Assembly (NCBI GenBank): GCA_964350985.1 | Contig: CAYGLK010000003.1 | Span: forward strand, 21,811 to 85,810 | DNA: 64,000 nt | Reading direction: 5' to 3' | Origin: an uncultured Candidatus Saccharibacteria bacterium | Lineage (GTDB): Bacteria > Patescibacteriota > Minisyncoccia > Phycocordibacterales > UBA918 | Part shown: positions 33,886 through 41,969 of the stretch, in pieces | Position numbering within the stretch: position 1 is the first letter of the stretch | How the letters are laid out: every line of letters starts with the position of its first letter | Position numbers and translations under genes: made by a program | The notes under the pieces: generated by a model | Seen by the model: only the letters and a program-made list of their open reading frames with translations | The model's database searches: none | Told to the model about the DNA's origin: nothing

Positions 33886-35481
33886 AGATAGAATCAGCTC
33901 AGCATATTGAGCATTACGCGTTGCAGTATCAAGGTTTTTGTCCAGTTCGAGCCGGTCATATTCGGCCTTTAGTGCTGGGTAGGCTTTTTCGATAGGTACG
34001 AACCAATCATTGGCTTCAATACTCACTTTTTTATCTTTTAAAATGTAGTTCTGACCAAGTGATGCAAATATCTCCCTCTTCTCTTGTGTTCCTCCTTTTT
34101 CAAAGGCGTGCCGAGCGTAACATGCGAAATTAAAAGTCTTCTCAGAAAGATCGAGCCAGACCTTTGCTCTATTTTCTGTAGAGTTAAGTTGTAATTTAAG
34201 TTTAGCTAACTTGAGTTTAAGAATATCTCTATCTTTAATAAACTGACCATCGTCAATTAAATCTCGATAGCGCATTTGTGTCAGTGTATCAAGCTGTTTT
34301 TGGACATCAGCATATGCTCTGTGTTGTTGTTCGTATATTTTTGTCCGCTCTTGTATCTCTTTGTCGTTTCGCTTATTCAAAATATCTATTGCCCATTCCT
34401 GAAACTTAGGCAAAATCGTGTATCGTTCAAGTTCTATATCGACCTGTTCTTCAAACTTATCTAGAGTGACTGGTTTTTGTTTACAAATACGTTTATTCGT
34501 TTGTTTATCCTTCTTTTTGTGAGTGCAGTGATAATAAGAGTATGTCTTAAGTTCGCCTGTTTTCTTTACTATTTTTTGCTTTACAGACGCCGTACACATA
34601 GCACTACACTCTCCGCAAGTCACTAACCCAGTAAAAGAAGACTCGTGAATCTGATTACGAGGCTTACCCTCTCTTCCTAAGATGATTTGAGCCTTATCAA
34701 ACTCATCAACTGAAATCATAGCTTTGTGATTCCCAGCATATACATTACCTGACCAAGTAAAGACCCCTGTATAAAATTGATTTGTAAAAATACGATACAG
34801 AGAACTCAAACCTATCGGCGTACCTCCTGATCGTTTTGTCTTTGGTGTTCTGAAGCCCCATTCTTCATTAGCAATCTTATGGATTTGTGTAACTGTATAA
34901 TTACCAGTAAGCAACATACTCCACATTTTTCTTACCATGTCCCAACGTTCTTCATCAGCATAGATTTCATGAATCAGTAAATCATTGTAGTAGCCCATTG
35001 GCGCCCTAGAAGGAAGCCAACCTTTATCAGCTTTACTCTGCATACCCCGACGACTTACAATCGCCAAATCACGAATGTATTGATTGGCCATAGCTCCTTC
35101 GACGCTAAATAAAAGTACATTATCTTCTGGAAGATACTCACGATCCATTGTTTGTATTACTTTGATAATACCCTTCTGTAACATCCAACCGAGTTTTCCA
35201 GAGTCTATTGGATTACGAGACAATCGATTGATATGCCAGCATAAAATACCATCAGCTTCTCCTTCCTCAATACGATCAAGCATTGCTTCAAACTTTGGTC
35301 GAATATATGGCATCTTTGAAGATTTTGATTCTTCTATAACTTCAACAATCTTGATCCCCAGACGCTCAGCTAAAGGCTTAAGCGCATTTACTTGATCGTC
35401 GATTGACTGCAATTGACGGTCAGAACTTTCATCTGAAGATCTTCTTGCATAAAGAAATAGCTTAGTTTTCTTTTCATTCAT
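33853..35481 (-). CDS. Large serine recombinase (resolvase/invertase catalytic domain, recombinase domain, zinc ribbon, coiled-coil)
   Basis: N-terminal YARRSSDESSDRQL (catalytic Ser) and RLSRN motif; C-terminal Cys cluster CGEC...YYHC; its last 11 codons are antisense to the 3' end of tRNA-His. Confidence 0.85.
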   Translation of the reverse strand: MNEKKTKLFLYARRSSDESSDRQLQSIDDQVNALKPLAERLGIKIVEVIEESKSSKMPYIRPKFEAMLDRIEEGEADGILCWHINRLSRNPIDSGKLGWMLQKGIIKVIQTMDREYLPEDNVLLFSVEGAMANQYIRDLAIVSRRGMQSKADKGWLPSRAPMGYYNDLLIHEIYADEERWDMVRKMWSMLLTGNYTVTQIHKIANEEWGFRTPKTKRSGGTPIGLSSLYRIFTNQFYTGVFTWSGNVYAGNHKAMISVDEFDKAQIILGREGKPRNQIHESSFTGLVTCGECSAMCTASVKQKIVKKTGELKTYSYYHCTHKKKDKQTNKRICKQKPVTLDKFEEQVDIELERYTILPKFQEWAIDILNKRNDKEIQERTKIYEQQHRAYADVQKQLDTLTQMRYRDLIDDGQFIKDRDILKLKLAKLKLQLNSTENRAKVWLDLSEKTFNFACYARHAFEKGGTQEKREIFASLGQNYILKDKKVSIEANDWFVPIEKAYPALKAEYDRLELDKNLDTATRNAQYAELILSWGGYRELNPN

Positions 35482-35746
35482 AGTTATTATATTTTACACC
35501 ACTTTTTTTATCTTCAGCGAGCCTAGTAACAAGATCGTTTTTTGTATCACTTCTTTTTTGTTCTATATTTTTATACTCTTCTAATGTCATAGGCTTATAA
35601 ACATGGGACATTAGAGTCACCAGCTTGAGTCCCTGCTCAGCAGCTGCTTCCTTTGATATTTCAGTTCCAAACTCTACTTTGTAGATTTGTTGAAACTTCT
35701 CAATGTCTTTGTTTGTAAGCATTTTTATAATTTGGTACAGCCCCAC
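35474..35746 (-). CDS. Hypothetical small protein, translationally coupled upstream of the recombinase
   Basis: 90-aa ORF overlapping recombinase start by 8 nt; no motif. Confidence 0.4.
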   Translation of the reverse strand: MGLYQIIKMLTNKDIEKFQQIYKVEFGTEISKEAAAEQGLKLVTLMSHVYKPMTLEEYKNIEQKRSDTKNDLVTRLAEDKKSGVKYNNYE

Positions 35747-36153
35747 TTTTACCTTTTGAGTGATGGCTCTAGTAGGGATATGGGTGAGGATTTATGAGAG
35801 TAAACAAATAGTGTATTTATGAAAGAAATTACCTAAGAGATCTTTCACATACCTTGACCTATCTCCGACCCTCTTCAGACGACAGGGACAGAGTGGGCAA
35901 CTGTTTTTCCCTGTGTTCGCAAGAAGACCTGAAATAGGGCTCAATTTTATTTAATGTAAGTGGATTGTTTTTACTCCAGTGCTCCCCTTAAAAACTGGCT
36001 CTTGTTTACTCGTTAATCACAAAAAGCAGTAAATCGATCTAGAGCAATCGACGTACTGCTTTTTATGCTCTAGATAAAACACTTGATGTGCCCAAAGAGA
36101 ATACGAAAAATCCCACTCCTTCTGAATGGGATAAATCTGGGATGAGTCTGTGA

Positions 36154-39882: not shown

Positions 39883-41691
39883 TTAGTCATCTCGCCTCTC
39901 CCCCTCAATAGCTATCCACTCCTCACCCTTGAGTATCAACATAACTTCTTTTAAATCACGCTCCTCATATTCTTTGATGTGCCTCTCTGCAAACTCCATG
40001 GCTTCAGGCAGCTTTTCACAGTCTTCCTCATTTGCTAAGTAGATGTAGATGCGTACATTCTTGGTGTTTGTTCGTTCTTTAGTTTTAACAAACAACTCAA
40101 CGAAACACCCCTCCATTTCTGCAGTTTTCTTCTTAAAGAACTTTTCTTTAAGAGTTTTGTACAAATCTTTACCAGCTTCTGTAAAAACGCCTTTAATAAC
40201 GCCATGAAATGCAAGCGAGATCAGAATACTTGCTGATAAACCAACAGTCCCAACCTGAATGCTGATACTGAGATCCATGTCGTTCTCGCTATCATCTTCA
40301 GAAAAAGCATCGTCAACTGCAATATCGTTTTCGTTTAGTTGAGTGTTATAGCCTAATGACTGTAGTTCAGTCGCCAAGTCTCTAACAACAGTACGATCAT
40401 TTACTTCAAAGGCGGCATCAATCTTTACATTTGGTTTAGATTTCAATACACCTGTTTCTGAATTAGGGAATATTATAGATTTACCAATATGGTCATACTG
40501 CGGTGCGTTGACCATATCTCCTTCCATTCGATTAACAACACTTCGCAGTTTATTGATTTGTTCTTCAAGTTCTTTAGGACTCAATGTTTTTATTTCATCA
40601 GAAGATAAAGATAGTATTTCGGGCATATCGTCACCTATGTCTCCCAGCTGCTCTGTGAGAACATTGATCTGACCCAAAATCTCATCTGTACTAAAATCTT
40701 CAATATTATATTGATCCTTGCTGACGTGTTTACTTAAATCACAAGGACTGTCGTACTGACCTTCTTCCAACTTAACCGAAGCCTGCGCTACCCGATAATA
40801 GATATTCCGAACTTCCTCTCGATAATAAGCGTCTGGATTGTAGCCTACCAGTATTGAACCAACCAGTGCGTGTTCAGACTCTTTTTCATGTTTCCTGTAC
40901 AGACATAAAATGATGTCTTGAGCAGCGATTACACTCTCAAAATCATCAAGTGCTTTCTTACTAGAAACTTGCATAATGCCCGTAGTTTTAACAAGACCTA
41001 AACCAAATAACATTCGCTCAACAATCCTAAACGGCTTTGGTCGATTAAAGTCCTCGAAAATCATGATGGCAAACAAAAGATCGTTTAGTTGTTTGTTAAT
41101 CCTGAAGTCAGTTTTAAGGATGGGTGCGTATTTGTCTTTCAGTGATAGATATTTATCTTCGTAGCGCCTATTTTCATCATCGTACGACATTGAGACATCT
41201 CTGTTTTTTAACAAGTCGTAAAAGAAAATGATAATGATGATCCACAGTTCAGTTGTTAATTCACCTGATTGTGGCAATAGAGCGGTAATACCCTGCTCTA
41301 TACCATGTACATAAAATAGGTAGGACAAGCTAATCGAACCAACTGCACTCCCTAAAAACCAACTTAGATTTGTATAACGTAGTTTGGTGTATGAAAGTAA
41401 GACCTGGATTAAAAAATACCAAATCGCCACCATCCATATTTCTTGTGTAAGGTAATCCTTATCAAAATAAAACAAAGCAATAGACACCAAACTGATAGCT
41501 ATTGGCATGTACAGCACCCTAAAAAATAGATTGAACGAGAGATTGCCAGATGAATATGCAGTCAGCATGCTGGCGTATCCATTATGAATACTTAAACGCC
41601 CAATTTCACCCGACAGCTTTAGCAACACCAATGCGAGAATGACCTGAAAAATGATTTGTTGTAGCCCTAGTTCCATAGTGCTAATATACAC
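39883..41691 (-). CDS. Hypothetical 602-aa protein with N-terminal 4-5 TM helices and large acidic/coiled-coil cytoplasmic region
   Basis: ORF and hydropathy only; no Walker or nuclease motifs found by eye. Confidence 0.45.
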   Translation of the reverse strand: MYISTMELGLQQIIFQVILALVLLKLSGEIGRLSIHNGYASMLTAYSSGNLSFNLFFRVLYMPIAISLVSIALFYFDKDYLTQEIWMVAIWYFLIQVLLSYTKLRYTNLSWFLGSAVGSISLSYLFYVHGIEQGITALLPQSGELTTELWIIIIIFFYDLLKNRDVSMSYDDENRRYEDKYLSLKDKYAPILKTDFRINKQLNDLLFAIMIFEDFNRPKPFRIVERMLFGLGLVKTTGIMQVSSKKALDDFESVIAAQDIILCLYRKHEKESEHALVGSILVGYNPDAYYREEVRNIYYRVAQASVKLEEGQYDSPCDLSKHVSKDQYNIEDFSTDEILGQINVLTEQLGDIGDDMPEILSLSSDEIKTLSPKELEEQINKLRSVVNRMEGDMVNAPQYDHIGKSIIFPNSETGVLKSKPNVKIDAAFEVNDRTVVRDLATELQSLGYNTQLNENDIAVDDAFSEDDSENDMDLSISIQVGTVGLSASILISLAFHGVIKGVFTEAGKDLYKTLKEKFFKKKTAEMEGCFVELFVKTKERTNTKNVRIYIYLANEEDCEKLPEAMEFAERHIKEYEERDLKEVMLILKGEEWIAIEGERRDD

Positions 41692-41735
41692 TTTTTTCAG
41701 CTTGACACTACATTATTTAAGTTCTGTATTCTAAA

Positions 41736-41969
41736 CTAGAAACGCCATTTAAGACCATTGATTTCATCAACTGCCTCTTGAGCACTATCAGCTGCTTCTG
41801 ATGCATAATCAGCAGCATCCTCTGCGTAACGCATTGAACGAGCAGCATAACTAGAGGCACTGTAGGAGTTTTCCATGGCTGTGTATGCAAAATACGCTAC
41901 CAGCAAAAGGAGCCAGTTCCTAAGCACCCACTTAAATCCAGATTTTGTGTACTTTTTAAAGAAAGCCAT
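41736..41969 (-). CDS. Small single-TM protein
   Basis: 77 aa, one hydrophobic helix, acidic tail. Confidence 0.35.
   Translation of the reverse strand: MAFFKKYTKSGFKWVLRNWLLLLVAYFAYTAMENSYSASSYAARSMRYAEDAADYASEAADSAQEAVDEINGLKWRF

Follow-up and report, generated by a model that had tools for sequence, protein, structure and literature searches.

The DNA analysed here is a 64,000-nt stretch (the window) from an uncultured Candidatus Saccharibacteria bacterium, in which a block of genes lies between a serine recombinase gene, convergent with a tRNA-His gene, and a Panacea-domain gene pair. A sequence-only reading had described this block as nine uncharacterised genes, carried beside the recombinase as candidate defence cargo. 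The ORFs that it listed are all present, with one frame error: position 38671, given for the plus-strand gene, is out of frame. The list contains eight ORFs, and the ninth is probably a 63-aa ORF at 38248–38439 (minus strand). That the set matches nothing that can be named is borne out: no ORF of the block has a significant match in Pfam, NCBIfam, PHROGs or PADLOC, and PADLOC-DB 2.0 gives 0 matches at E ≤ 1 across all of them. At least four transcription units make up the block, which contains a terminator and genes in divergent or convergent arrangement. The sequence recurs exactly in L001, an independent contig from Logan that shares the 112-kb source contig at NCBI. The anatomy of the island and its conservation patterns are direct observations, and every biochemical function ascribed to its genes below is a prediction from sequence.

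The left end of the island is formed by a tRNA-His (GTG) gene at 33811–33885 on the plus strand (ARAGORN; Rfam tRNA, 54.7 bits), which is the apparent integration target and left junction (attL). The intact recombinase gene lies opposite to it, at 33853–35481 on the minus strand. Its 542-aa product carries the complete domain set of a large serine recombinase, namely a Resolvase catalytic domain (Pfam, 5e-19), a Recombinase domain (4e-9) and a zinc ribbon (Zn_ribbon_recom, 5e-7). The last 33 nt at the 3′ end of the tRNA gene are also the final codons of the recombinase on the opposite strand, an overlap that is seen directly. Among the 82 recombinase-related loci that were recovered, 40 were scanned for tRNA genes, and a convergent tRNA lies at or overlaps the recombinase 3′ end in 25 of these; the targets are His, Asn, Ala, Asp, Phe, Trp, Gln and Ser tRNAs. 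It is proposed that the recombinase inserts the element into the 3′ end of tRNA-His; the element DNA that would then restore this end doubles as coding sequence for the C-terminus of the recombinase.

Immediately upstream of the recombinase, and overlapping its start by 8 nt, is a 90-aa ORF at 35474–35746 (minus strand), for which an ATG at 35722 is the likely true start. It encodes a small helical protein with a conserved core of about 60 aa, and about 40 loci have a homologue upstream of their recombinase gene. The protein has no Pfam or PDB match, and represents an uncharacterised family that is a candidate directionality or regulatory factor. This ORF is conserved with the recombinase; it belongs to the mobility module and not to the cargo. 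The description of the block as cargo beside a serine recombinase is correct in placing it inside a mobile island, and incorrect for this one gene. The cargo of the related islands is variable: the 259-, 153-, 147-, 132-, 397-, 602- and 77-aa proteins of the block are each absent from all 82 recombinase-related loci.

Genomic islands of the Islander/TIGER type integrate at the 3′ ends of tRNA genes, and large serine recombinases move islands and phages, as in the ccr genes of SCCmec and integrases of the phiC31/Bxb1 type. The present island resembles both in having its recombinase gene at one end and variable cargo that includes toxin-antitoxin and nuclease genes. As in tRNA islands, element DNA would rebuild the tRNA 3′ end, and the far end is probably marked by a displaced tRNA 3′ fragment. 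tRNA islands usually use a tyrosine integrase, whereas a large serine recombinase is used here. Three further features set this family apart: the recombinase stop codon lies inside the opposite-strand tRNA gene in many members, a conserved, uncharacterised partner of about 60 aa accompanies the recombinase, and a LOOT RNA is present in some members.

For the right end there are two candidates, both copies of the tRNA remnant, which makes its position ambiguous; each lies inside a structured 158-nt repeat and has a 1-nt indel relative to the tRNA. The nearer repeat, a strongly folding element at 46234–46391 (plus strand), is most likely the right junction (attR). Its last 15–18 nt are the displaced tRNA-His 3′ end (46373/46376–46390), and the 15-nt exact remnant at 46376 has its second copy at 54572, within a 95% identical copy of the whole element at 54430–54587. 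The displaced end at 46376–46390 suggests a 12.5-kb element. The length is at least 9.6 kb and most likely 12.5 kb (33.86–46.39 kb); the GC content of the segment from 43.5 to 46.4 kb is nearer to that of the host. In three related loci (L029, L067 and L039), displaced tRNA 3′ ends lie 6.6–9.5 kb upstream, with repeats of 12–18 nt. Also in this part of the window is a 139-aa protein at 43046–43465 (minus strand), the likely start of which is the ATG of MKTNE. It has a PD-(D/E)xK-like motif (PDFAV...IEVK) by eye, and its matches to TnsA-like and REase families are weak only.

A structured RNA that the sequence-only reading had missed lies in the middle of the block. The LOOT RNA (RF03000) is directly detected at 38501–38615 on the minus strand (115 nt), where it scores 67.8 bits (E 1e-10), above the gathering score of 46.4, in a full-length match to the covariance model, covering positions 1–121 with all helices present. 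The motif was described by Weinberg et al. 2017 (PMC5737381) and entered in Rfam 14 as a “metagenomic-based RNA” (PMC7779021); no description of its function or genomic setting was found among the accessible papers. The setting is where the present copies depart from that record, in that LOOT sits inside serine-recombinase islands and heads an operon whose first genes encode small membrane proteins in three of four cases. A scan of 59 loci (718 kb) located other copies in L019 (75 bits), L022 (60.6 bits) and L065 (54.1 bits), and the stems show compensatory changes across copies. All four copies lie 1.4–3 kb upstream of the recombinase, and three of them are followed on the same strand, after 45–61 nt, by an ORF that encodes a small membrane protein. 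Since only 4 of 60 related elements carry it, LOOT is dispensable for the recombinase-element family.

In the window, LOOT is divergent from the 397-aa gene and precedes a minus-strand operon, whose first ORF begins 61 nt further downstream. The RNA may be regarded as a putative 5′ leader or co-transcribed RNA that would control or accompany the downstream operon. This operon runs from 38439 to 36154 in the order LOOT, 63 aa, 132 aa, 147 aa, 153 aa, 259 aa and terminator, with small membrane proteins first and probable DNA-binding proteins after. The 63-aa ORF contains a hydrophobic segment and is uncalled in L001; its stop overlaps the ATG of the next gene as ATGA, and it is, by its sequence, translationally coupled to the 132-aa gene. 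The latter (37874–38272) encodes two hydrophobic helices. It is followed by the genes for the 147-aa protein (37429–37872) and the 153-aa protein (36920–37381), the second of which has an HTH-like stretch (ISRHTYSSWKRRGYVP) by eye only; its best profile match, Xre-MbcA-ParS_M, is not significant (E 0.21). No relative of the 132-, 147- or 153-aa protein was detected in the fetched recombinase-related loci or in any profile library. The last gene (36154–36933) encodes the 259-aa protein, which has no profile match and a single known relative among 5.8 billion clustered proteins (P0010, 48% identical and of the same length). Its C-terminus resembles an OmpR-type winged helix, by eye only. A hairpin followed by a T-run, like an intrinsic terminator, closes the operon at 36110–36132. 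The starts called in L001 are shorter for three proteins of the block, giving 245 aa for the last gene (36154–36891), 125 aa for the second (37874–38251) and 597 aa for the large membrane protein; the overlap at 36920/36933 therefore holds only with a TTG start. The operon as a whole would be the element's own regulatory or maintenance region. The near-orphan genes of the block may be decaying.

A broader version of this last idea would make most ORFs of the block spurious or non-functional remains of an old insertion, so that nothing beyond the recombinase module and the toxin-antitoxin pair would matter. The scarcity of relatives for the four downstream proteins of the LOOT-led operon and the low confidence of the structure models agree with it. 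However, the ORFs are long and free of interruptions, they lie close together with translational coupling, the recombinase is intact, and even the 259-aa protein has a relative of its own length. Diverged relatives of the 397- and 602-aa proteins moreover keep invariant residues, which indicates purifying selection. Wholesale decay is accordingly quite improbable.

The only plus-strand gene of the block starts at ATG 38669 (397 aa, 38669–39862) or at TTG 38567 (431 aa), and in the longer version it overlaps the LOOT RNA. Its product has a PIN-like N-terminal half and a C-terminal Cys/His domain. The FFDTNMVV motif, previously noted as weakly PIN-like, is real and is conserved across a family of 69 cluster representatives. 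E59, D189, D213, D215, C93, C322, H372 and C376 are invariant in 37 family sequences, at least 90% of which also keep D26. The acidic residues (D26, E59, D189, D213/D215) follow the canonical PIN order, and the protein shares with PIN-domain nucleases, such as VapC toxins and PIN-containing defence proteins, a first strand of hydrophobic-DTN type and T-x-D-x-D as the last motif. Unlike these, the protein has no significant profile match to any PIN-clan family, an insertion of about 100 residues within the domain, a C-terminal domain of about 170 aa with the invariant Cys/His set, and no conserved adjacent antitoxin gene. The PIN signals are weak but concordant (PIN_2, E 0.024, below cut-off; PDB 1o4w, E 0.52); PF01850 matches one of the 37 family members (E 0.003), and no PADLOC model matches any of the 37 at E ≤ 0.01. 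An AF2 model built from 2 sequences is unusable (pLDDT 37).

As is also seen for PIN-containing defence proteins, family members adjoin defence genes (RM, Mrr, GmrSD, Panacea) or a serine recombinase, here in six of seven loci. The gene is always single in the loci examined, and its neighbourhoods are unrelated and without conserved partners. Because of its solitary occurrence and these neighbours, it is a candidate single-gene defence nuclease. It would be a metal-dependent PIN-like nuclease with a probably zinc-binding C-terminal domain, and may work on its own, as an effector that is toxin-like or directed against phages.

The remaining genes form a minus-strand operon of four, in the order Panacea gene, 148 aa, 77 aa and 602-aa membrane protein. 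The SocA/Panacea-domain protein is encoded at 42432–42860 (Pfam, 1e-24). Its partner, a presumed toxin of 148 aa (41982–42428; phrog_8366, 8e-26), starts 3 nt downstream and lies outside the noted block, in the same operon. The 77-aa gene (41736–41969) and the 602-aa gene (39883–41691) follow. PanA (Panacea-domain) toxin-antitoxin pairs are said, after work by Kurata and others in 2022, to be two-gene systems. The SocA_Panacea protein with a small partner gene 3 nt later is the same here. In contrast, the pair is co-directional and tightly linked to the 77- and 602-aa genes both here and in L008, a linkage absent from the described two-gene systems. The four genes are 94, 88, about 82 and 72% identical in L008 (Panacea 94%, 148-aa 88%), where the 77-aa protein is partly conserved. 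The operon may be an addiction or defence cassette, with a Panacea antitoxin and a 148-aa toxin.

The 602-aa protein has N-terminal helices, then a conserved domain at about residues 170–310 and a linker of helical character; its C-terminal part, of alpha/beta type, is found only in the closest relative. The multi-helix hydrophobic N-terminus agrees with the multi-TM region noted earlier. The domain motifs MIFEDFNRP, TTGIMQV and YNPDAYYR are invariant in 6 sequences, including, by eye, an invariant E213 motif, and AF2 models the segment 170–310 with a pLDDT of about 65–89. The domain resembles family-1 lytic transglycosylases (SLT/GEWL) in a Glu that ends a helix (MIFED), in a beta-hairpin with G-I-M-Q followed by a Y-N motif past the next helices, and in its highest-probability BFVD matches, which are SLT and LT_GEWL proteins (probability 0.69 and 0.57, Foldseek E about 0.5). 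It differs from them in its fusion to a multi-helix membrane anchor and a 250-aa C-terminal extension, and in having no SLT- or lysozyme-like match in Pfam (5 domain sequences) or in a PDB profile search; Foldseek against PDB found nothing. The resemblance to transglycosylases is weak; the domain may have a lysozyme-like fold, or that of a lytic transglycosylase, and act at the envelope. The N-terminal module also occurs elsewhere in unrelated neighbourhoods without conserved partners, some of them neither defence nor mobile settings (after dnaG-rpoD; among metabolic genes on a Rhizobium plasmid).

The weak best BFVD matches of the 602-aa protein are to phage SLT/GEWL proteins, in line with a reading of the block as what is left of a prophage, or as a phage satellite. 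On this reading, the LOOT-led operon would serve lysis (holin-like) or immunity, the 602-aa protein would act in lysis or entry as a transglycosylase-type protein, and the HTH proteins would be repressors. Serine recombinases are common as phage integrases, an RNA and small membrane proteins at a divergent promoter region would fit, and the Panacea and 148-aa proteins match PHROG families. Yet PHROGs and Pfam reveal no capsid, terminase, portal, tail or replication gene, and PHROGs give no structural match below E 0.03, so that the phage structural genes named earlier as a possible identity do not appear. A tblastn search of 50,697 phage records gives no match to the 397-aa protein or to the N-terminal half of the 602-aa protein. 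Of the 82 recombinase relatives, just 2 belong to a viral contig collection, and elements of this recombinase family are just 6.6–12.5 kb. This explanation is unlikely.

The proposal that the block is one coherent multi-gene anti-phage system draws on its position between an integrase and the Panacea toxin-antitoxin pair, on tight gene packing, and on the defence genes that accompany the 397-aa family elsewhere. This last association stands; the single system does not. The block as a whole has no conserved neighbourhood, and its genes are seen to co-occur nowhere else except in the Panacea-148-77-602 unit of L008. The 397-aa protein and the N-terminal module of the 602-aa protein occur alone among unrelated neighbours, the PADLOC search suggested as a check matched no defence system, the recombinase module accounts for one of the ORFs, and the genes are divided among four transcription units. 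One system is very improbable.

The preferred reading is that the nine-gene block lies inside a small mobile element of the integrative kind, forms its interior and is a mosaic of separate units without a single system (probability about 0.6 for this picture overall). That the island is mobile and that the block is not one system are both highly probable, and the individual functional assignments within it are tentative, from doubtful to about even. The island would comprise four units: a mobility module of the recombinase and its 90-aa partner, the LOOT-led operon, the divergent 397-aa gene and the four-gene Panacea operon. Judged from its sequence, this small element of a Saccharibacteria genome carries several genes nearly without relatives, an orphan structured RNA (LOOT) and a lone candidate nuclease of PIN-like type.

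The element that carries the ORFs at 35474-41969 is a tRNA-inserted island. It stands out through its serine recombinase, the small conserved protein that accompanies it and the LOOT RNA (Rfam family RF03000), which only some members of the family carry. The sequence-only reading took these ORFs for one candidate defence or accessory system. As mobile-island cargo the interpretation holds, while as a single system it does not: apart from a 90-aa ORF (35474-35746, minus strand), the proteins of the block are absent from all recombinase-related loci.

Every listed ORF is found in the window sequence. 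An independent assembly, Logan contig L001, has the same sequence, and the proteins have entries on an NCBI contig of 112 kb. Nine ORFs had been claimed and eight listed; the ninth is probably a 63-aa hydrophobic ORF at 38248-38439, whose stop codon overlaps the ATG of the next gene. The start given for the plus-strand gene, 38671, is out of frame, and the real start is the ATG at 38669 (397 aa, ending at 39862) or a TTG at 38567. A non-coding gene was overlooked at 38501-38615 on the minus strand, where a full-length LOOT RNA lies. The remark that the set resembles nothing nameable stands, because Pfam, NCBIfam, PHROGs and PADLOC gave no significant match for any ORF of the block. PDB sequence searches with the 397-, 602- and 259-aa proteins, and with family profiles of the 397-aa protein, the 602-aa domain and the 90-aa protein, likewise returned nothing significant. 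In a word-indexed search of 5.8 billion clusters, the 259-aa and 397-aa proteins each had one relative and the 602-aa protein had five. By eye, and with no tool support, an HTH-like stretch can be seen in the 153-aa protein and an OmpR-like winged helix at the C-terminus of the 259-aa protein; the 132-aa and 63-aa products are hydrophobic. Phage structural, replication and conjugation genes were sought with Pfam and PHROGs, and none were found. The 397-aa protein has no relatives among phage or plasmid records, and the N-terminal half of the 602-aa protein has none among phage records and a single distant match among plasmid records.

The genes fall into several transcription units. On the minus strand, LOOT is followed by the 63-, 132-, 147-, 153- and 259-aa genes (the last at 36154-36933), with a terminator-like hairpin at 36110-36132 at the end. 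The 90-aa gene and the recombinase form another unit, and the 397-aa gene stands divergent on the plus strand. Finally, the SocA/Panacea-domain gene (42432-42860, minus strand) is followed by the 148-aa (41982-42428), 77-aa (41736-41969) and 602-aa (39883-41691) genes, spaced 3, 12 and 44 nt apart. Neighbourhood conservation fails for the block overall and is seen only for this last unit, the sole multi-gene arrangement kept elsewhere, which recurs in locus L008 with gene identities of 94, 88, about 82 and 72%. About 40 related loci have a homologue of the 90-aa protein upstream of the recombinase, and the protein belongs to the mobility module; Pfam and PDB searches with it gave no match.

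The left end of the element is occupied by the large serine recombinase (542 aa, 33853-35481, minus strand), and the last 33 nt of its gene coincide with the 3′ end of a tRNA-His gene (33811-33885) that converges on it. Relatives with 31-59% identity were fetched from 82 loci, 40 of which were scanned for tRNAs. At 25 of these 40, a tRNA gene (His, Asn, Ala, Asp, Phe, Trp, Gln or Ser) converges on the recombinase gene and touches or overlaps its 3′ end, so these recombinases are a family inserting at tRNA 3′ ends. In three relatives (L029, L067 and L039), a displaced copy of the final 12-18 nt of the tRNA lies 6.6-9.5 kb upstream and delimits the elements. The only such remnant in the window, TCCCGGTAGCCGCCC (exact over 15 nt, or over 18-19 nt if one indel is allowed), occurs at 46376-46390 and 54572-54586. 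Given the first of these copies and the remnants in the relatives, the element most likely spans 33.86-46.39 kb, and the second copy would then belong to a relative that is older or lies in tandem. The right boundary is unproven, because both remnants lie inside a very stably folding 158-nt repeat (MFE about -70 kcal/mol) that also has a tRNA-His-like 5′ acceptor half, and because the GC content at 43.5-46.4 kb is more host-like. At 43476-43521, between a 139-aa gene and a DUF305 gene, a perfect inverted repeat (21 nt, 4-nt loop) looks like a bidirectional terminator and is a possible alternative right limit. An empty site was sought through flanking-gene synteny, and the flanks were common to no related locus.

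The 158-nt repeat has copies at 46234-46391 and 54430-54587, and a degenerate third copy begins at 54625. Its ends resemble the acceptor stem of tRNA-His together with half of the T arm, one hairpin shows compensatory changes between the two copies, and no match was found in Rfam. An analogous structure, an inverted T-arm copy about 100 nt inside the element, lies beside the displaced tRNA-Ala end of L029. That locus (1-19130) holds a related 6.6-kb island with a Panacea homologue, at a tRNA-Ala between the 16S and 23S rRNA genes. At L049, a group I intron (6966-7242, 84 bits) lies directly 3′ of the recombinase gene, at the usual place of the target tRNA, and this element may target a tRNA that contains an intron.

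To the right of the block, a 45-95-nt repeat with the core CTCAAACACAGTTCGAAC occurs in eight window copies (43449-43484, 46116-46205, 48501-48590, 49386-49451, 52463-52528, 53471-53560, 54315-54404 and 56954-56998). On the minus strand each copy can be read as the remnant of a peptide, (G)DVVEDVRTVFExLxDExVYIPxF, with a protein-like substitution pattern among copies and the start codon usually absent. The intervals between copies hold single accessory genes: DUF305, an ECF sigma factor with an acidic repeat protein, Vut_1, Fic, YdjM, EamA, His_Phos_1 and VTT. This layout has the look of a cassette array, or of repeated insertions, each of which displaced the 3′ end of a gene. A 233-aa ORF (57056-57757, minus strand), whose stop codon at 57056-57058 is in frame with a downstream repeat remnant ending in AEDVRTVFENQL and a stop, could be the disrupted target of such insertions. 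The 484-aa acidic protein beside the ECF sigma factor contains a 201-nt direct repeat (46735-46935 and 47260-47460, 97% identical), which amounts to an internal domain duplication.

The LOOT RNA of the window scores 67.8 bits, where the gathering score is 46.4. It has been recorded as a metagenome-derived RNA with neither function nor setting given (PMC7779021, PMC11701678), and the main text of the 2017 discovery paper does not treat it (PMC5737381). Rfam scans at gathering thresholds of 59 recombinase-related loci (718 kb) were used in place of a single-sequence covariance model, which gave 12.5 bits on a true LOOT and was dropped as too insensitive. These found LOOT in L019 (75 bits), L022 (60.6 bits) and L065 (54.1 bits), or in 4/60 loci when the window is included. 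All four copies lie 1.4-3.0 kb from the start of the downstream recombinase, share the signature CCUAAAC...GCAUGG...GAAA, and show compensatory changes in stems P1, P2 and P5. In the window, L019 and L022, LOOT is flanked by divergently transcribed genes (in L065 the contig end is too near to tell), and its 3′ end is followed after 61, 45 and 46 nt, respectively, by a same-strand ORF encoding a small membrane protein. Our inference is that this RNA leads, or is co-transcribed with, an operon inside the element. The operon proteins of the window and L022 share no similarity, and blastn of LOOT against phage records gave no real match. The idea that LOOT guides the element toward its tRNA target was rejected by a crude test, in which no cognate-specific complementarity was seen and shuffled sequences did equally well.

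The defence idea gains support only for the 397-aa protein. A full HMMER search gave 69 cluster representatives, of which some 40 are full length. An alignment of 37 sequences shows E59, D189, D213, D215, C93, K174, C322, H372 and C376 to be invariant and D26 to be almost invariant, and the acidic residues follow the PIN-nuclease order with the local motifs YFFDTN, TE, NYxND and TADxD. PIN matches are sub-threshold and concordant (PIN_2, E 0.024; PF01850, E 0.003 for one member; PDB 1o4w, E 0.52); the AF2 model, built on a 2-sequence alignment, was useless. At every one of seven loci the family is a single gene. Its neighbours are the serine-recombinase island with a Panacea pair in the window, a Panacea pair and a BglII restriction-modification system (L007), an MjaI restriction-modification system and Mrr (L091/L092), a serine recombinase with a methylase/helicase pair (L093), a convergent Panacea pair (L094), GmrSD (L095), and nothing notable (L096). 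No member matched the PADLOC models. On this sequence evidence the protein is a candidate stand-alone defence or toxin nuclease.

The first ~350 residues of the 602-aa protein form a module that occurs alone in other genomes, and combine membrane helices with a domain carrying invariant MIFEDFNRP, TTGIMQV and YNPDAYYR motifs. The motif order and predicted helix-hairpin-helix layout resemble family-1 lytic transglycosylases. The AF2 model reaches moderate confidence only at residues 170-310, and its sole compact, higher-probability Foldseek matches, in the viral library BFVD, are SLT and LT_GEWL (weak, E ~0.5); Foldseek against PDB gave nothing, and Pfam and PDB profile searches were negative. 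A lytic-transglycosylase-like function is tentatively suggested. Neighbourhoods of the module are heterogeneous, with mutually unrelated downstream partners, and no similarity was found to suggest that the C-terminal half is a fused version of the separate downstream gene of its relatives.

Taken jointly, LOOT could be a leader or regulatory RNA dedicated to tRNA-3′-end serine-recombinase islands, and the 397-aa protein could found a new single-gene defence family with a PIN-like nuclease and a Cys/His zinc domain; we give this joint reading roughly one chance in four. Under it, LOOT may control a small-membrane-protein operon governing element maintenance, exclusion or host killing.

These results caution against taking a gene block for a system on the ground that it adjoins an integrase and a toxin-antitoxin pair. 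The PIN-like/Cys-His family (69 clusters), which is not in the 2023 PADLOC models, is a candidate for defence screens, and the orphan structured RNA LOOT is now placed in a concrete, testable genomic setting. The recombinase family uses the same sub-site in many different tRNAs, with its reading frame ending inside the tRNA gene; it helps to map islands in poorly studied genomes and is a source of natural recombinases with differing targets.
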